From positions 12,590,746-12,654,745 of the forward strand of contig NC_071115.1 of assembly GCF_024256425.1 (NCBI RefSeq): a DNA stretch of 64,000 nt, in the 5' to 3' direction. Below the pieces are notes generated by a model. The model made no database searches. It was not told the origin of the DNA and worked only from the letters and a program-made list of their open reading frames with translations. This DNA comes from Clarias gariepinus. Its lineage: Eukaryota. The translations under genes and the position numbers were made by a program. Numbering within the stretch: the first letter of the stretch is position 1; every line of letters starts with the position of its first letter. Below, in pieces: positions 3,143 through 23,290 of the stretch.

Positions 3143-3376
3143 TCACTGCTGCACGCTAGCGTGATGAGAGCAGTGCTCGGCCGGCTGCTTGGTGACCCCT
3201 CCGAACACTTCCACCTCGCGGCTGGTCCAAGGGACTACATTACCCAGCATTCCCGTGCTGCAGTGGGCTATTGCGGAAAGCTCTGCACGAGTGAGCGGCC
3301 GGTCCCACATGTTAAACTGAGAGAGATCACCTAAAAGAGCCCGTGTTGCCTCGAAACGAAGTCCGCCCATTGAACC
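3143..3376 (-). CDS. nptxr: neuronal pentraxin receptor, terminal coding exon 5 (pentraxin domain C-terminus, includes the stop)
   Basis: The acceptor is cgtgcag|GGTTCAATGGGC. The translation GSMGGLRFEATRALLGDLSQFNMWDRPLTRAELSAIAHCSTGMLGNVVPWTSREVEVFGGVTKQPAEHC...* aligns with human DTLGGRFDATQAFVGDIAQFNLWDHVLTPAQVLGIANCTAPLLGNVLPWEDKLVEAFGGATKAAFDVC. The five exons sum to 1587 nt, or 528 aa. Confidence 0.9.
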   Translation of the reverse strand, partial: GSMGGLRFEATRALLGDLSQFNMWDRPLTRAELSAIAHCSTGMLGNVVPWTSREVEVFGGVTKQPAEHCSHHASVQQ

Positions 3377-4235: not shown

Positions 4236-4415
4236 CTGTTCCTGGCCCAGGACAAGCGTTCCTCCGGGACGGATGTAGTGGCGGCTTGCCAGGTCCTTCC
4301 CCTCAACTTTCAGCTTGCCTCCCACGTAGGCGTGCCACACTCCTCCTCTCCTGTTCCAAGTGACACACACATGCTGCCAAGAACCCATGGTGAGGTTCAG
4401 ATAGAACTGTGCCAC
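4236..4415 (-). CDS. nptxr: neuronal pentraxin receptor, coding exon 4 (pentraxin domain)
   Basis: The acceptor is tatag|GTGGCACAG and the donor is CAG|GTGAGT. The translation VAQFYLNLTMGSWQHVCVTWNRRGGVWHAYVGGKLKVEGKDLASRHYIRPGGTLVLGQEQ aligns with human VAQLPLSLKDNGWHHICIAWTTRDGLWSAYQDGELQGSGENLAAWHPIKPHGILILGQEQ. The exon is 180 nt. Confidence 0.9.
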
Positions 4416-5275: not shown

Positions 5276-5517
5276 CTCATTTTTGATGATAAGCTCGACA
5301 GGTCCATGGACTAACTGCTGCAGCACCAGCTCATGAGGGTCTTCTGAAACAGCATAAGAAACTGCAGTTCCCAGGATGCTCTGCGCAGGCCTGAGCCACA
5401 TGCAGACAGTGAGGGCATGCAGCATAGGGATTGCTCGCTTCACCACAGCATACATTGAGCTGCTCCGCAGAGGAAATGAGAGTCTGTAACCCTCTGGAAA
5501 CCTGTTCTCAGACAGAC
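5276..5517 (-). CDS. nptxr: neuronal pentraxin receptor, coding exon 3 (start of pentraxin domain)
   Basis: The acceptor cag|GTCTGTCTGAG lies directly after a (GT)n run, and the donor is AATGAG|GTATAA. The translation GLSENRFPEGYRLSFPLRSSSMYAVVKRAIPMLHALTVCMWLRPAQSILGTAVSYAVSEDPHELVLQQLVHGPVELIIKNE aligns with human SSAYSPPDAFKISIPIRNNYMYARVRKALPELYAFTACMWLRS...ELLINDK. The exon is 242 nt and the phases fit. Confidence 0.85.
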
Positions 5518-5519
5518 CT

Positions 5520-5541
5520 GACACACACACACACACACACC
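5520..5541. repeat. (CA)n/(GT)n microsatellite abutting the nptxr exon 3 acceptor
   Basis: acacacacacacacacacacc on the plus strand, so (GT)n on the coding strand immediately 5' of the cag| acceptor. Confidence 0.95.
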
Positions 5542-6077: not shown

Positions 6078-6339
6078 CTTGCTCAAGACTGCTGATGCGT
6101 TGGTGGACAGCGTCCAGTCCGTGGTCAATGTGCTGTTGATGTTTCTTGGCTTCCTTTCGAAGTGTTTTCCTCTCCTCTTCCAGGACTTGCATCTTACGCT
6201 TCAGCTCTCGTTCCAGATCCTCCACTCGCCGCTGTGCTGAGACTCCATGGTGTGCGATTCCGCTCGAGACACTGCCTTTGCCCTTCTGACCCTTTTGCCC
6301 TGACTCTGTGTGGTTGTGAGCTAGTGGAGCCATTTCTGC
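6078..6339 (-). CDS. nptxr: neuronal pentraxin receptor, coding exon 2 (coiled-coil)
   Basis: The acceptor is ttcttgtag|GCAGAAATGGCT and the donor is CAAG|GTGAGA. The translation AEMAPLAHNHTESGQKG...RRVEDLERELKRKMQVLEEERKTLRKEAKKHQQHIDHGLDAVHQRISSLEQ parallels human ELPARVNLS...LEGQLLAQVLALEKERVALS...QGRVAELEHG. The exon is 262 nt and ends in phase 1. Confidence 0.8.

Positions 6340-7826: not shown

Positions 7827-7876
<50 letters not shown>
7827..7876. repeat. (TA)n microsatellite in nptxr intron 1
   Basis: A direct read of about 25 TA units. Confidence 0.95.
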
Positions 7877-8285: not shown

Positions 8286-8954
8286 CTCCAGTTTCTCGAT
8301 GCGCTCCTTCATGTGCATGATGGCTCTCTCCAGTTCGCGGACAGTGAGTGCAGGCGGTCCCGCGTCGTCCTGCATCATGAGCCCGTCTCGGGTGTCCCTC
8401 CTCCCAGCCCACAAGCCCTCGCCCCTGCGCGTGCCGCCTTCACAGACGGAGAGTTTCCCGGTCAGATCGCGGATGGTGCGCTGCTCGGCGCGGATCTCCT
8501 CCTCCTGCTGCTCCACGGTGCGCCTGAGCTCTTCCGCCGTAGCGCGGAGATCCCCCCACTGATCCCCCGCGTGTACAGTCTGCTCGTCCGCCTGGAAGCC
8601 TTTCGGTCTGCACTCTCCAGCCGGAACCGGAGTACAGATCAGCTTGCTGACTCTCACCACCTGCTGCTCGCCGTTGTCGCCTCCCGTTCTCCCGGTGATC
8701 CCGTAGAAGGTTGGAGAGTCAGGGCTGCTCCCATGGAGCGCATCCACCGGTCCTGCCCGGGCCACGGAGCCTGACGGGAAGGTGAGGACACCCGAACCCG
8801 CAGCCAGGGACTGGTTATCGGCGAGGGGCTGTGCGGCGGTCGAGGCTGCGGCTGCGGGCGAAGGAGAGCCGCCGTGCACCGCGGCGATGATGCAGATCAC
8901 GGCTCCGACAAACGCCACCATCCCGGCGGCCAGGATCACCACAATGAACTTCAG
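8286..8954 (-). CDS. nptxr: neuronal pentraxin receptor, coding exon 1 (type-II signal-anchor plus coiled-coil region). Start assigned to the CTG at 8954-8952; the first in-frame ATG is at 8921.
   Basis: The minus-strand translation LKFIVVILAAGMVAFVGAVICIIA...LICTPVPAGECRP...EELRRTVEQQEEEIRAEQRTIRDLTGKLSVCE...ALTVRELERAIMHMKERIEKLE aligns residue for residue with human NPTXR MKFLAVLLAAGMLAFLGAVICIIAS...FLCTPL...IRADQDTIRELTGKLGRCE...LEDAVRALRDRIDRLE. A GTACAC donor follows at 8285-8284. The exon is phase 0 and 669 nt long. Confidence 0.85.
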
Positions 8955-9250
8955 GGTGGCGGTTTGTTCAGGCGGTGAATATGAGAAACGGGTCAAGAAA
9001 GGAAGAGATAAAACGCCCCACAGCACTAAATAATCAAATAGTTGCTTGATGTTCGGCTGTAGACTGTATCGTTAATATGGCAGCAGATCAGTAGTGGATT
9101 CTTTCTCCTAATGATGCCGCCAGTGTTTTCAGTGTAGTCTCAGACCGAAGCCCCGCCCACTCGTTCTGCTTCACCGCTACGCAAATCTCTTCATCTACTC
9201 TACCCTACAAAAAAGTCATTCAGACTAGTGCGCCACTTCGCGTACACTTC
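8955..9250 (-). promoter_or_regulatory. nptxr: nptxr 5' UTR and proximal promoter region (GC-rich, Sp1-like GC box gccccgccc at about 9150)
   Basis: This is a GC/CpG-rich block immediately upstream (higher coordinates) of coding exon 1. An in-frame stop lies at 9074-9072 and no ATG falls between it and the CTG at 8954. Where the transcription start lies cannot be determined from sequence. Confidence 0.4.
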
Positions 9251-9639
9251 TAATACAAAGACTATACCGAAAGTAATGCAAAAGTGGGCAAAACCTTAAA
9301 AAAAAAAAAATAAATTGCCACAGTTGATTCAAATTGCACATATTGGTAGAGTAACTCTTCCTCTACTGTATACACTCAACATAGTCTCCATCACAAAGCA
9401 TGCATTTGCTCCATCGTTGAACCCAACTCTCGAATCCTCTTTCTTCATAAATCTGGTGTCACCTCCATAAACATTCTGTAGCACAGATGGAAACCATCTG
9501 CAGCGACAAAAGGGGTTCAGATGCAGGCTATATTGAGTTGTATCGTTGTGTACAGGAAAAGTTCTCGGCCAACATTAAAATTCAATTATTTCTTCTATGG
9601 ACCTTATAGCACATTGAGAGCATTGGTGGCTCATTAGTA

Positions 9640-17500: not shown

Positions 17501-18757
17501 CTAAGGGTTTGTCTTTTTTGAAGAAGATAAATGATTGGCACAGCAGGGAGATGAGGCCACTGCCGGTAGTCCAGGTGGATGGCAAAACTCTTTAATAGTG
17601 ACAGTAAGGAGGTTGGTTGTAACGTCTGTAATGACAACGTTGGCACACTGTGCGGCCATTTCCGGATGCCAATCCAGGTCCTGTTCCTCCTCTGAGGCCT
17701 CTTCAGATATGGGAATATCAGGAACTTTGGGCTGTCGGCGGCCACGAAAGTGCTGGCGCTGTCTGGCTCGCCTGTCGGTTCCATGAGGCACAGAGAGATC
17801 CAGGATGCGCTCGTTGTCTTCAGAGGAGGACGATAATGATGAGGAAGAGGAGGACGAAGAGAACATGGGAGAGGAAGGCATGGCTGACTGAGACAATTTG
17901 GCTTTCGAGTCTGTTAGCTGAGGAGAGGATTTGGCAGCATGGGAAATTTGAGAATTGGCTTCACCTGATTGTGGTAACTGATTAGTGTGAAACTGTGTTG
18001 GAGGTGGGGGGTGAGGTTCACTGTCCGAGACCTCGGAGCTTGAAGCAGATCGAGGTGGCTCGGCATGTGCTTCAGACACAGGTATTGTATTCTTAAATTT
18101 TGAGCTTTGAGAGGAAGATGCCAATGGATTTGTACCTGTTTTGTGACCACTTTGTTCAGCCTTTGGCTTTTCCTCAGAAGGGTCCATTGAATAAGCCTCA
18201 ATTGGCTTTCTAAAAACCGAAAATCCAGCACTGCTCATGGGTGGCTGCAGGCATCTAAAAGATACTTCCCCAAACCTCCTGCTCTTCCCGATTACTCTGT
18301 TCCGGGAGGGAACTTTCTGGCGCCCAACATGAGACTGATGGCTAGAATTTGGAGTCCTTTTATTGTTAGCTGGTCCAGTCTTGTCCATTACTTTTAGATT
18401 TAAGATCACCCGTCCCTTTTTGACTTCACGGGGTTTGACTTTTCGGTTAAGGATGCGGACGGTCTCACAGAAAGGGCTGACCGTCGGACGGGAAGAGAAG
18501 GGACCAGAAGAACCGACTGGTGGAGCTAAAGGGTCAGGGCGAGGTAAAGGACGTCGTGCCATCCGATGACACCGGTGGATGTCTTTCTTCAGTTTGGGTT
18601 GGGCAGCTCCAGACTGCAGCTTAGCATTTGAAGAGCCACTGGGATGGTACGAGGGTGCGGATGCGGGTGTGGGTGGAGGAGGTGGCTTGGAGGATGGCTG
18701 AGGCCGACTAGGCTTGAATTCAAGAACTCTAGGTGAGCTCTCAGCCTGTGCTCGTGA
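17501..18757 (-). CDS. cbx6: chromobox protein (CBX6-type), large terminal exon 5 (Ser/Pro-rich low-complexity region and C-terminal Pc/C-box)
   Basis: The acceptor is ctccttag|TCACGAGC, 89 bp from exon 4. A continuous 1257-nt reading frame runs to the stop at 17501-17503. The C-terminal motif [32 protein letters not shown] is the Polycomb C-box (human CBX6 ...[28 protein letters not shown]...). The five exons total 1503 nt, or 500 aa. Confidence 0.85.
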   Translation of the reverse strand, partial: [418 protein letters not shown]

Positions 18758-18846
18758 CTAAGGAGAAAGATAAAGAAAATGAATGGGGTATATTTTCACA
18801 AAAGGTAAACTGAACATGCAAGGTACACATAAAAAAGTACACTTAC

Positions 18847-18913
18847 CTTTAAAAGGAGTGTTTTAGGCTTGGGTCCTCTCTTTTTTGGTCCATAAAGTTC
18901 TTGTTCTCTTTCT
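18847..18913 (-). CDS. cbx6: chromobox protein (CBX6-type), exon 4 (AT-hook-like [10 protein letters not shown])
   Basis: The acceptor is tccctccag|AGAAAG and the donor is TTTTAAAG|GTAAGT. The translation (K)[22 protein letters not shown] aligns with CBX6 [22 protein letters not shown]. The exon is 67 nt. Confidence 0.9.
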
Positions 18914-21564
18914 CTGGAGGGACAAAAAAAGATGAGGGTGAACACTTTTCATAATTCAGGTGCTTTGGTCAGTCATACATTTTAGCATGCATCCTCACTT
19001 TAGATACAATGAAATTGGGGGAAGCATATAAAAAGCACATGAGGTGTAGGGTTATAGAATATGACTGTAGCTTGAAACATAAAACTCGTACTTAATATGT
19101 AATACTCAACAGCATTATTAATAATTAACTCATTTGTAATCTTCTTTGTGGTCTGTCCAAACAAAGAGCAGTTGGCTTTTAATTACAAGATTATTTTACT
19201 ATGAATCAAGTTTCTAGCCATAACACACCACTAAGATGGTTTACTTCTTCTGGATGATACTGGAGCAATCAACATTCTTATTCGTTCAAAACTACTGCAG
19301 TTATTAATGACATCTGTTCGAATCTGCTGTCCAGAGTCCAAGTATGTCTCTTGTTTCGTTAACAATTTATCTTTTGGATCAAATCCAATTTATAACCATC
19401 TGTAAACATTTTTTTATTATTATTATTATTTTTTTTTTACACAAATGTGTCCCACAAGAATCAGGCCTTAGACTTCTGTGTTTCACCTCATATATTTTTC
19501 TTTGCCAAGATAACTCAGCAACATGGTTTAACTCCCAGTGCAAGGTCCATCACAGCTCTTCCGCCTAGCTCAATAACCAGCTATCTAAAATCATTAATGG
19601 GTACCAGCTCACTTAAATAAAACAGATCAAACAGAAATTCTGCTTCTTGCTTGTTTGGCTGAAAATTAATCTGAACTCATTTCATTTTAGGTTTTCATAA
19701 TTGTATCCTTAAGATTACTGTAATCTCCTTTTGGCTGGCATGTTACACAGCCTTGTGCCATCTCTGTTTCTTCCTCTAATCCTGCACACAAGCTCTCAAT
19801 CCCAGGTCTACCAGTACTGATTCACAGAGTTTAGGACCATAGCTGTTAAGACTGCTTAGAAAGGTAAAGTAGCCTGCTTGAATACTTCCTGCAAAGAATT
19901 GTTCATAATGTCATCCTTTGACTCATATAGAGCACACCAAAACATCCACACATCAAACAGCCATAACGGCGCAGAGCACACTCATCAACATCAATAGACA
20001 TCAAAGATCACAGTGAGCGCTGACAATTTCCCCAATTCTCTTTCCTCTACATAATGATTCTGCACTTTCTCACACCACAAATGTCGCTAGGCTGTGACAG
20101 ATTGGTCTACAATGTGTGTGCTGAAAAAAACTTGCACCATATAGTTGAGATGAAAGGTTTCCATACATCTGATTTTTTTTTTTTTTTTTTTTTACACATA
20201 CTCATGATCATATAGCAAAGTAATCTCCTTTAGTTCCATTCTTAATTTACTATATTGGGTTTGTAGAGGATCAAATGTTTCCATACACTTTGAAAGCACT
20301 GCCTTTTATTTGCTCAACTTGAATCCTATGTCTGTGGTAGTTTTCCATAAACATCTTGCAATACTTTGCTGAACATTTTGCCCGTTCCTCCTGTCAGAAC
20401 CAGTGTCATTCATCTCCCATGCTCAAAAATGATTTTGACAAATTTTTTACGGGACATGCCAATACTTCCACTCTGTGACCTTTAAGCCATTTTGTTACAA
20501 GTTTAAAAGTTGAGATCTTTATGTTGCTGAAAACTCCAGGTACAGCCAAGTTTCAACTTTCTGTCTGATGTCATGAAGTCTCGCTTCAATATATCTAGAG
20601 AATTCTTCTTCCTCATGATGGCATCTATTTTCCGACATGCACCAATGCCTTTTTCAAGCAACACCCTCACTGTATGATTCTTCCACCCTTATTTTTAACA
20701 GCTTAAATGTTGTTGTTAGAATTAAAACCATTCTATGGTTTAGATTTTTCTAGACATTAAGGATACATTAAGGTCAATTATTAGAGCCAAACAGTTTCAT
20801 CTGATGAGAGAATTAGGATTAACAAAAGCGCCAACTCCCTCACCTGTTCCTCCACTATCTTGTGGCTCATTTGAACGTTTTAGAAATTTTTTTATTAACT
20901 TTTGGATGTTTGTTTCCGAGGTTTTATACTTAAATACAATTGTTTAAAAAGTTAGGTAATTTGGACATTTGACCATTTTACAAGGTCCCAGTTTTTTCTT
21001 CTTCTGAGGTTTAGGATACGTTTTACAGCTAAGGTCGCAATCAAAAGCTTTTAAAACTTATTACGTTTATTTCTGGAATCTATACTTTTTAATTGCTTGA
21101 ATTAAAATTTGTGGAGCTGTGAAAAAAAAAAAAGAGTGCCCTTTAATGCATGTGTATGTAAACTTTTGTCCTTAACTGCATATAGTTTGTTTCTCATTAC
21201 TGCACATGTGCAGTTGGCACCATGACCAATATAATTTGTTCCAGATTGGTATTTCTTTGAAGGTTTTGATCACACAACTAATGAAAATACCTTGGGTTAA
21301 ACTGACTAAGCTGTAAGGTGTTAGGTCCTTGCATAGTGCATTTACCTTCCTCTTCTTCTTCATCAGTAAAAATTTCACTAGCGTTTCAAAAAGTCATCGT
21401 TTATCATGGACAGGACAGCATAAGAGGGTGTGAAAAATAAGTTTTTTTTTAAGAAGATTTAAAAAAAGGCTGTACCACTTTCTTTAAAGCCTCATCAGAA
21501 ACACATCAGTGGTAGGTCCAGAAAGTTACTAATGAACTTGCATATATTGCAATCCAGACTGTAT

Positions 21565-21568
<4 letters not shown>

Positions 21569-21622
<54 letters not shown>
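21569..21622. repeat. (TA)n microsatellite in cbx6 intron 3
   Basis: Direct read. Confidence 0.95.
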
Positions 21623-21626
<4 letters not shown>

Positions 21627-22156
21627 ATATTGCCTAGCCATAGAATACAAATTAACTCCTATAAATAGCCACAAAAAGATGAATGCAAGTCTTAAATTTG
21701 ATTCTTCTTCTTATTTACTTTTAGTAAATGTATACTTTTAGGAAAATGCACTAATATCTCTCTCTCTCTCTTTAATTGTCCTATTTATTTTCAATATTTA
21801 AAATTGACATAACATTTCTGAGTATCAGCCAAGGACTGATATTGAAATGCTTACACGAAACAATCTCACTCTCTGGAAACTTCTGTCACTAAATTATACA
21901 AACCATTATGGATGTGATAATACAGATGTGCTCGTTGTTTACATGAAAGGTCTGTTTTGTGTCAGTCAGTGCAACATGCACAGCACGTATTGATGACAAA
22001 CACGACAATCTGAATCAGACGAGTGCAACCCGAACATGCACAAGTCGAGAGGTTAACACTGTCACGACAAATGTTTCTTCGCATATTAGATTTTAAGGAA
22101 ACACACAAACTTAGTGTGTGTGTGGGGTAACCAAGAAGACTGAGAATCAAACTCAC

Positions 22157-22222
22157 TTTTGTTCGAAAGCAGCTACGAGTCGGTCATCGAGGATGTTCTC
22201 CTCTGGCTCCCAAGTGCTGTAC
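22157..22222 (-). CDS. cbx6: chromobox protein (CBX6-type), exon 3
   Basis: The acceptor is gtgtgcag|GTACAGC and the donor is CAAAA|GTGAGT. The translation (K)[21 protein letters not shown](K) aligns with CBX6 [22 protein letters not shown]. The exon is 66 nt. Confidence 0.9.
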
Positions 22223-22312
22223 CTGCACACACGCAATAGAAACACAGGTATTTTATAAAAGGTATGTTTATTACGAACCAAATAATAACAATTCACATTT
22301 CAGATGACTTAC

Positions 22313-22356
22313 TTTATAGCCCAGCCTTTCCATTTTACCAAATACTCCATACGACC
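22313..22356 (-). CDS. cbx6: chromobox protein (CBX6-type), exon 2
   Basis: The acceptor is ttccag|GGTCGT and the donor is ATAAA|GTAAGT. The translation GRMEYLVKWKGWAIK matches CBX6 GRIEYLVKWKGWAIK; CBX8 has GWSQK and CBX7 has GWPPK. The exon is 44 nt and ends in phase 2. Confidence 0.9.
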
Positions 22357-22876
22357 CTGGAATGATAACATAAGCACATGGGGAAATGGGACAGTCAGAC
22401 AGTCAAGAAGCAAAAACAACAGAAACAAAATAGACACAACACTTTGAAAGCAGAGCAAAAAGCTCATTTTTTGCAAGGCTTGTCAAACAAAGGGCTCATG
22501 AGACGAGCTGTGGTTAGAGACTGATATACAAGTCACCTGAATTAAGGTTATTGTTTGGTCCAAATAAGCCTTGGCCATTTCTCGAGCACAGGCAGACTGC
22601 TCTTTGTCAAAATTAGCAAGGCGGGCAGACACAAAACAGCTGTGTTCGTCTCCCGGGCTAGCGCTAGTCTCTCTCACACACACAGGGCAGGCACACAACT
22701 AGCCTGCCTGCTAACGCTTTCTGCATCACAACACATTGTCCGAATGCCACACTGCGAGCAGGGCTAACCGCATCTACAGCGCTGCGTCTGGACCCTGCAC
22801 CCCAACCAGACAATAACCCGAGCCTTTCATGAACCGCACCTAAAGCAGGGCATTGTCACTGAAATGAATTCACTCA

Positions 22877-22917
<41 letters not shown>
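22877..22917. repeat. compound (GT)n(GA)n microsatellite in cbx6 intron 1, about 55 bp from the exon 1 donor
   Basis: Direct read. Confidence 0.95.
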
Positions 22918-22969
22918 CAAAGTTTAATCGAAGGCCGCAAAAACGCATCGCAACTGAAAATACACCAAC

Positions 22970-23038
22970 CTTACGGACGCGCCGCTTCAGGATGGCCTCG
23001 GCGGCAAACACGCGGTCCCCCGCCGCTGAAAGCTCCAT
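22970..23038 (-). CDS. cbx6: chromobox protein (CBX6-type), coding exon 1 (chromodomain N-terminus)
   Basis: A ccagctATGGag Kozak context precedes the ATG. The translation MELSAAGDRVFAAEAILKRRVRK aligns with human CBX6 [23 protein letters not shown]. The donor is AAG|GTTGGT. The exon is 69 nt. Confidence 0.9.
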
Positions 23039-23290
23039 AGCTGGGGACAGGAGACGACGCTTCGCCCGGTGAGGACACGGAAAGGAGCCCCGCGCTGATC
23101 GGGGAAAACACAAGCAGCCAGCCGCGCACAGATCGACCAGTGACTGTGGGCCCACGCGGTCACGTGACCCTGAGTAGGGGAATGCTGCAGCTAGGAGACA
23201 GGGGTAGGCGGGGATACTGTCAATCACATCCGCGCTCAACCAATCGTCGTTAGTTATGCTAAATTGCATCGACTGGGCTGTGCGCATGCG
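23039..23290 (-). promoter_or_regulatory. cbx6: cbx6 5' UTR / CpG-rich core promoter (CCAAT box ctcaaccaatcg, E-box cacgtgac)
   Basis: This is a GC-rich segment immediately 5' of the ATG on the minus strand. It holds cacgcggtcacgtgaccc and caaccaatcgtcg motifs. Where the transcription start lies cannot be determined from sequence. Confidence 0.4.

Follow-up and report, generated by a model that had tools for sequence, protein, structure and literature searches.

A probable near-cognate CUG start and an in-frame AUG at codon 12 in a neuronal pentraxin receptor gene of Clarias gariepinus, and the contrast with an ATG-type teleost paralog

The nptxr locus and its start region

The 64 kb stretch of Clarias gariepinus DNA that was analysed as a whole (referred to as the window) contains a complete gene for a neuronal pentraxin receptor (nptxr) on the minus strand. 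Its coding sequence is distributed over five exons and, counted from a CTG codon in exon 1, comprises 1587 nt, corresponding to 528 codons and the stop. A CBX-family Polycomb gene is located upstream on the same strand (approximately 17501 to 23227). The features of the two genes are as follows.

8286..8954, minus strand: coding part of nptxr exon 1 (223 codons), with the donor GT at 8285-8284
6078..6339, minus strand: nptxr exon 2, encoding the coiled-coil region (Hemibagrus protein as tblastn query, splice-site inspection)
5276..5517, minus strand: nptxr exon 3, where the pentraxin domain begins (tblastn, splice sites and Pfam Pentaxin)
4236..4415, minus strand: nptxr exon 4, pentraxin domain (tblastn, splice sites and Pfam)
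3143..3376, minus strand: nptxr exon 5, with the TGA stop at 3145-3143 (tblastn and splice sites)
17501-18562, minus strand: open reading frame with the CBX7_C motif
near 22931-23227, minus strand: CBX chromodomain exon

The translated exons 3-5 matched the Pfam Pentaxin profile (PF00354) with an E-value of 3.8e-29 over profile positions 4-194 of 194. In a tblastn search with human NPTXR, for which the query was 99% identical to a tamarin database protein, the alignment opened with residue 1 at position 8954 and the pentraxin exons were found downstream. The N-terminal anchor, with an apolar run of 24 residues, is homologous to the mammalian sequence MKFLAVLLAAGMLAFLGAVICIIA. The closest database proteins are 86–89% identical to the nptxr product, and the 90% cluster of the best match includes the ‘Neuronal pentraxin receptor’ of a bagrid catfish, Hemibagrus guttatus, which is the closest named relative (about 89–91% over exon 1). 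In the exon-1 tree, built without NPTX1 and NPTX2 as outgroups, nptxr fell within a clade of teleost NPTXR sequences (199/200 bootstraps). The CBX gene upstream matches the human gene order, CBX6-NPTXR. The gene is the CUG-type teleost paralog of the neuronal pentraxin receptor, probably nptxra.

The elements around the start of exon 1 are listed below, with numbering relative to the first base of the CTG.

8952..8954, minus strand: CTG, codon 1 of nptxr, the near-cognate start codon of the long form with the membrane anchor (residue 1 of human NPTXR in the alignment)
8955..8962, minus strand: initiation context CCGCCACC (-8 to -1), which includes GCCACC (column identity among 11 loci)
8919..8921, minus strand: ATG, codon 12, the first ATG for a scanning ribosome and a probable second start (invariant in 11/11 loci)
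8877..8948, minus strand: codons 3-26, the apolar stretch of 24 residues FIVVILAAGMVAFVGAVICIIAAV (apolar run length)
9072..9074, minus strand: in-frame TAA (sequence reading)
8955..9255, minus strand: block of about 300 bp conserved in three catfish-clade sequences, presumed promoter and 5' UTR (alignment)
9151-9158, minus strand: GC box GGGCGGGG within the presumed promoter/5' UTR block (sequence)

A preliminary description of this DNA had proposed that nptxr initiates at the CTG (8954-8952), which is preceded by GCCACC and an in-frame stop (9074-9072) and followed by an ATG at 8921, and all of these coordinates check on the minus strand. The stop, a TAA, lies 120 nt 5' of the CTG, and the GCCACC hexamer (8960-8955) directly precedes it. 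The context had been called a perfect Kozak sequence; this holds for its 5' side, but the base at +4 is A (from the second codon, AAG) where the consensus has G. Our reading also agrees with the earlier statement that the frame contains no ATG between the in-frame TAA and codon 12. Moreover, ATG is absent in any frame across the 240 nt upstream of the CTG, with the nearest one at -240. The first ATG after the CTG is codon 12, in frame at +34, i.e. 33 nt downstream. It had been described as the only in-frame ATG of exon 1; it is the first, but four later in-frame Met codons are present near the exon end (...GLMMQDD...AIMHMKE...). The proposed match between the CTG and Met1 of human NPTXR was borne out by the tblastn alignment described above.

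A single copy of the motif GCCACCCTG is present in the 64 kb window (0.17 expected), and at least one copy was found in 17 of 100 shuffles. This count by itself is not significant, and the start motif is considered non-random because its exact position is kept in 11 independent loci (see below). The conserved block of about 300 bp in the catfish clade ends at the CTG, and conservation drops abruptly 5' of approximately 9255. Judging from this alignment, the block resembles a promoter followed by a short leader. Three upstream in-frame codons, GTG at -72, CTG at -69 and TTG at -42, were considered as starts and rejected, as they are unconserved in the relatives and have poor contexts. An Rfam scan of the whole 64 kb window gave zero matches. 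A search with a fragment of the DANA SINE, as a check for zebrafish origin, was also negative; this counts for little in either direction, and the cluster membership of the protein indicates catfishes instead.

Conservation around codon 1 in eleven loci

The start region was compared among 11 independent CUG-type loci, consisting of eight teleost loci (this one and seven others), locus L014, a bird-like contig (L016) and the stingray Hemitrygon akajei (L015). The 11 loci align without gaps when codon 1 is used as the anchor. The column identity from -30 to -9 is 0.36–0.64 at almost all positions and that of CCGCCACC from -8 to -1 is 0.82–1.00, so that conservation begins at -8. Within this context, A at -3 and G at -6 are invariant (11/11). 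Codon 1 is CTG in 10 of the 11 loci and GTG, which is another efficient near-cognate codon, in Danionella cerebrum with the same context. Codon 2 (AAG) is also invariant in all 11, as is the ATG at codon 12, which is always the first ATG and in frame 0. The context of this ATG, GCCGGGATGG, with G at -3 and G at +4, was found in 9/9 ray-finned-fish loci. The deep conservation of a non-AUG start with its Kozak context that had been envisaged from the single sequence is therefore observed from stingray through a bird-like contig to teleosts, each of the loci having an NTG codon, A at -3 and G at -6; with the mammalian genes included, it extends from rays to mammals.

The type of variation changes at the CTG. 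Among the eight teleost loci, codons 2-11 contain six variable nucleotide columns with one amino-acid change, a conservative Val>Ile replacement, and the synonymous changes fall in Ile, Val, Val, Ile and Leu codons. In the same loci, nearly all columns 5' of -9 vary and three-base periodicity is absent. Judged from these substitutions, codons 2-11 are under purifying selection at the protein level, and the pattern reads as the signature of translation from codon 1 and not earlier. Aligning the 5' ends of orthologues had been put forward in the preliminary description, and the conserved CTG and the purifying selection on codons 2-11 that it looked for were both recovered. The triplets GCC GCC GGG before ATG12 are invariant at their synonymous sites in 8/8 teleost A-type loci, while codons 4-8 vary freely.

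Upstream of codon 1, an in-frame stop is present in every locus (11/11), and no in-frame ATG was found within 380 nt in any of them. In the bird-like locus, one in-frame ATG occurs at a distance of 387 nt, slightly 3' of the stop at -393. The in-frame stops, the replacement of CAA by TAA at -12 in one close relative and indels that are not multiples of three show that the sequence 5' of the CTG is non-coding.

Conservation at the RNA level was examined with the first 135 nt from the CTG. The minimum free energy (MFE) of this segment was -52.1 kcal/mol (z = +0.77 relative to shuffles), and the fold is no more stable than that of shuffled sequence. RNAalifold gave a hairpin in which nt 25-39 pair with nt 63-77, enclosing AUG12, and nearly all pairs are invariant; informative covariation was not found in this hairpin, with a two-sided change in one of 13 pairs. 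No structural claim is made for this hairpin, which would bury AUG12 against an invariant CAUCAUC; ATC ATC is also conserved in the ATG-type paralog (described below), where the pairing partner is absent. The MFE of -39.1 kcal/mol published for a zebrafish reporter was reproduced by none of the examined loci (135 nt each).

An ATG-type teleost paralog

The search with the human N-terminus also detected a second teleost group, named ‘neuronal pentraxin receptor b’ in Cynoglossus semilaevis. Members of the same ATG-type group are named ‘neuronal pentraxin receptor(-like)’ in Sinocyclocheilus, Dissostichus and Plectropomus.

The N-terminus of this paralog (nptxrb) reads MKFVVVLVGAG-x-LAFLGAVICIIASVYPRKR. 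The three copies that were read as DNA each have a genuine ATG at codon 1, and the context from -8 to -1 is not conserved among them. At position 12, none of the 49 proteins has Met; the residue there is T, S, A, L or V. The paralog nptxrb resembles the gene in the window in having a homologous N-terminal anchor (MKFVVVLVGAG.LAFLGAVICIIASV), a coiled coil and a pentraxin domain, and differs from it in the ATG at codon 1, the unconserved -8 to -1 segment and a codon 12 other than Met; its product is presumably a fixed membrane form. Met12 is thus present in 11/11 loci with a near-cognate codon 1 and in 0/49 ATG-type proteins.

The genus Sinocyclocheilus holds both CUG-type and ATG-type copies, and the two types are regarded as true paralogs because both occur there. 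In a neighbour-joining tree of exon 1, calculated with the first 14 residues excluded, the CUG-type clade (199/200 bootstraps) and the ATG-type clade (186/200) are sister clades. L014 has CTG and Met12 but falls with the ATG-type clade (182/200 bootstraps). This placement, together with the states in stingray and tetrapods, suggests that the ATG state of nptxrb is derived.

On balance, we lean slightly towards the view that, of the two copies produced by the teleost gene duplication, a single one retained the CUG/AUG12 switch. Under this scheme, codon 1 of nptxrb would have changed to ATG, and the conserved Kozak context and Met12 would have been lost, leaving the membrane form only. The nptxra-type copy would hold the CUG (GUG in Danionella), its context and ATG12 under constraint at the nucleotide level. 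We present the contrast between the paralogs as a lead, drawn from three DNA-checked copies and a simple distance tree. In the literature that was searched, no description of the nptxrb pattern (ATG at codon 1 and no Met12) was found.

Proposed use of the two starts and its implications

The CUG start of nptxr, including that of fish, is already known (rat, 1997; vertebrates including zebrafish, 2024), and the new contributions of this study are limited to the paralog contrast and the systematic misannotation described below. According to Dodds et al. (1997, J Biol Chem 272:21488), CUG is the codon for the initiating methionine of rat NPR. The preliminary description had suggested that human NPTXR is annotated with a CUG initiator, and this agrees with a 2008 compilation of CUG-initiated mRNAs that includes human NM_014293, mouse NM_030689 and rat NM_030841 (PMC2396638). 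Lee et al. (2024, bioRxiv 10.1101/2024.02.16.580719) reported that the CUG and the downstream AUG are both conserved across vertebrates and that both codons of NPR are used through leaky scanning. In mouse, the truncated anchor of the AUG product becomes a cleavable signal peptide and the protein is secreted, and a CTG>ATG knock-in mouse produces predominantly the long form and has synaptic and behavioural changes (Lee et al., 2024). Reporters with the first 135 nt of NPR from human, mouse, frog and zebrafish each gave both products, and the CUG was used far less in the frog and zebrafish constructs than in the two from mammals (Lee et al., 2024). That both starts are used, with membrane-bound and secreted products, is accordingly taken from the literature (rat and mouse, and in vitro the human, mouse, frog and zebrafish reporters).

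The gene in the window belongs to the same family as mammalian NPTXR/NPR and shares with it the NTG at codon 1, the A at position -3, a first AUG that falls within the anchor (codon 12) and the CBX neighbour; in both, the apolar run is cut from 22–24 to 13–15 residues. Specifically, the run here has 24 residues from the CTG and 15 from ATG12, and the human counterparts are 22 and 13. A difference lies in the very stable stem-loop reported 10–12 nt 3' of the CUG in mammalian mRNAs, which boosts CUG use (Lee et al., 2024), whereas the fold of the segment here is no more stable than that of shuffled sequence. The zebrafish NPR reporter (Lee et al., 2024) is likewise a teleost sequence, from which CUG- and AUG-initiated products were obtained in vitro; it differs in being from another species and in being a fusion of 135 nt to GFP that was translated in rabbit reticulocyte lysate with low CUG efficiency. 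More distant parallels are C1QL1-4 (upstream AUU; Lee et al., 2024) and the CUG isoforms of FGF2, WT1 and BAG1, in which a near-cognate codon in a strong Kozak context and a downstream AUG also give two N-terminal proteoforms with different localisation. In C1QL, a secreted protein gains an anchor through the extension, and the annotated form is the AUG one; in NPTXR, by contrast, it is the non-AUG form that is annotated.

We consider it likely that the nptxr gene in the window undergoes dual initiation at the CUG and AUG12 by leaky scanning, giving membrane-anchored and secreted forms. In the proposed mechanism, ribosomes would scan a 5' leader that is free of AUG over its final 240 nt, and part of them would initiate with Met-tRNAi at the CUG (8954-8952), aided by the CCGCCACC context. 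The rest would pass the CUG and reach the first AUG 33 nt on (codon 12), which is in a strong context with G at -3 and G at +4. The AUG12 product would retain 15 apolar residues as a cleavable signal peptide, and the pentraxin would be secreted. This 15-residue core is followed by HGGSPSPAAAAS and resembles a signal peptide. By analogy with the mammalian protein, codons 3-26 would be a signal anchor when translated from the CTG and a signal-peptide-like core when translated from ATG12, and ATG12 is a probable second start for the short secreted form. The preliminary description noted correctly that a start at Met12 cuts the anchor, but as an argument against this codon the point does not hold, as the mouse AUG is a genuine second start that yields a secreted form. 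From the same analogy, we infer that the two starts operate in vivo in this species, and any statement on their ratio is an extrapolation of the same kind; given the weak CUG use of the zebrafish reporter, the long form may be a minor product in fish.

Three alternatives were weighed against dual initiation. A conventional ATG could be supplied by an upstream exon, or by read-through from CBX, spliced in frame, as in the Hemibagrus guttatus model P0116 (1071 aa), in which CBX sequence is fused to ...FCLFSPLFSYSLPPQTAT-LKFIVV..., reading through the leader. Between its TAA and the CTG, the nptxr leader does contain four AG dinucleotides. However, the P0116 fusion exits the CBX exon immediately 5' of the conserved C-terminal motif of CBX, a motif that is intact in the window, and the AG of TTTAG in the leader is lost in the two closest relatives. 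In four of the 11 loci (L003, L001, L015 from stingray, and L009, with in-frame stops at -12, -24, -45 and -87, respectively) there is no AG from the in-frame stop to the CTG, and no canonical acceptor can add an ATG there because of this absence. The stop of L003, a close relative, is the TAA of the CAA>TAA change at -12. Furthermore, the alignment of the catfish clade has indels of 5 nt and 8–9 nt in the supposed coding stretch, and conservation across lineages starts no earlier than -8. We regard this origin of the start as extremely improbable, and we read the fusion of CBX and nptxr in P0116 as an artefact of gene prediction, brought about by the lack of an ATG. The second alternative, that translation starts solely at the ATG at 8921 and that the CTG and the next 11 codons are an untranslated leader and a mammal-like relic, is very unlikely, if somewhat less so. 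Automated annotation takes Met12 as the start in Sinocyclocheilus grahami, Cirrhinus, Danionella, Gekko and Hemitrygon, and the weak CUG use of the zebrafish reporter points in the same direction. Nevertheless, the long form did appear from that reporter, codons 2-11 bear the mark of protein-level purifying selection in their synonymous changes and single conservative V>I replacement, and the CCGCCACC context and NTG codon are kept from stingray to birds, which an untranslated leader would not retain.

The remaining alternative is the converse, in which the CUG is the sole functional start, Met12 is an ordinary methionine of the anchor and this fish makes no secreted short form. It is consistent with the annotated mammalian protein, which is the long form, and with the ATG-type paralog, whose anchor works without Met12. 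The distribution of ATG12 between CUG-type loci and ATG-type proteins, however, fits selection on it as a start codon, and the GCC GCC GGG ATG G context is frozen even at synonymous sites in the 8/8 teleost loci. In addition, ATG12 is the first AUG 3' of a leaky near-cognate codon, and both products were made from the zebrafish reporter in vitro. A sole start at the CUG is thus judged to be unlikely, although it is the least improbable of the three, and dual initiation is the reading that we prefer.

NPTXR is a textbook non-AUG gene, and its switch between membrane and secreted forms of a synaptic organiser has been dissected in mice. Automated annotation pipelines mishandle the nptxr start of fishes and other vertebrates, either by truncation to Met12 (the five taxa named above) or by fusion to CBX (Hemibagrus). 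If the proposed history of the paralogs is true, the strict link between Met12 and a non-AUG codon 1 would imply that Met12 persists for its role as a start codon and not as a membrane residue, and nptxrb would be the counterpart in nature of the CTG>ATG knock-in mouse. The teleost pair, in which the CUG-type copy is switchable and the ATG-type copy fixed, could be used to probe the purpose of the proteoform ratio.

Codon 1 in Danionella and deposited gene models

In Danionella cerebrum, which is represented by one assembly only (GCA_007224835.1), codon 1 of the nptxr locus (L002, 1468-1470) is GTG instead of CTG. The context preceding this codon, aaCCGCCACC, is the same as at the CTG loci, and the difference is an exchange of one near-cognate start codon for another. 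Met12 is the annotated start in the models of Sinocyclocheilus grahami, Cirrhinus, Danionella, Gekko, and Hemitrygon. The deposited Hemibagrus guttatus protein (P0116, KAK3520298.1) is a chimeric model combining nptxr with a CBX gene, which lies upstream in the window as follows.

17501-23227, minus strand: CBX-family Polycomb gene
17501-18562, minus strand: last exon of the CBX gene, an ORF containing the CBX7_C motif
near 22931-23227, minus strand: chromodomain exon of the CBX gene

Specifically, the equivalent of 17630-23227 is joined to about 8999 and downstream, so that the C-terminal motif of the CBX protein is omitted and the nptxr 5' leader is translated through, apparently because no ATG was available for nptxr. 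The order of CBX gene and nptxr in the window agrees with the human order, CBX6-NPTXR.

Likely promoter region and repeats

Conservation among three catfish-clade sequences delimits a block of ~300 bp that contains a GC box and ends with an abrupt loss of conservation near 9255. Because of this abrupt end, the block is a likely core promoter. Three microsatellites were found in and around nptxr.

9151-9158, minus strand: the GC box of this block, GGGCGGGG, located upstream of the CTG at a distance of about 200 nt
7827-7876: perfect (TA)25 in nptxr intron 1
2106-2142: (AT)18 downstream of the nptxr stop codon
about 5519-5540: (GT)n immediately ahead of the nptxr exon 3 acceptor

Codons 20-23 and the ATG-type paralog

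8886-8897, minus strand: codons 20-23 of nptxr, ATC TGC ATC ATC

Across the range from stingray to birds, and in either teleost paralog, the synonymous sites of these codons are almost invariant. Only two departures occur, a CGC in Danionella and an ATT in the nptxrb locus L013. RNAalifold paired their CAUCAUC with GGGAUGGUG around AUG12, with no informative covariation for this pairing. In the ATG-type paralog, the codons are conserved although the partner GGGAUGGUG is missing.

Codon 1 of this paralog, teleost nptxrb, is a true ATG in the DNA of related loci outside the window (L012 1501-1548 and 3662-3709; L013 1501-1548), and no conservation of the Kozak context was found among these three copies. 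The two L012 copies (Sinocyclocheilus rhinocerous) are near-identical exons 1, starting at 1501 and 3662 with a spacing of 2.1 kb. Either the exon was duplicated in tandem or the second copy is an artefact of assembling a tetraploid genome.

None of the 49 nptxrb proteins has Met at codon 12, where the residue is T, S, A, L, or V, whereas ATG12 is retained in all 11 CUG/GUG-type loci. The paralog resembles a natural "AUG knock-in", a copy that would yield the membrane form only.
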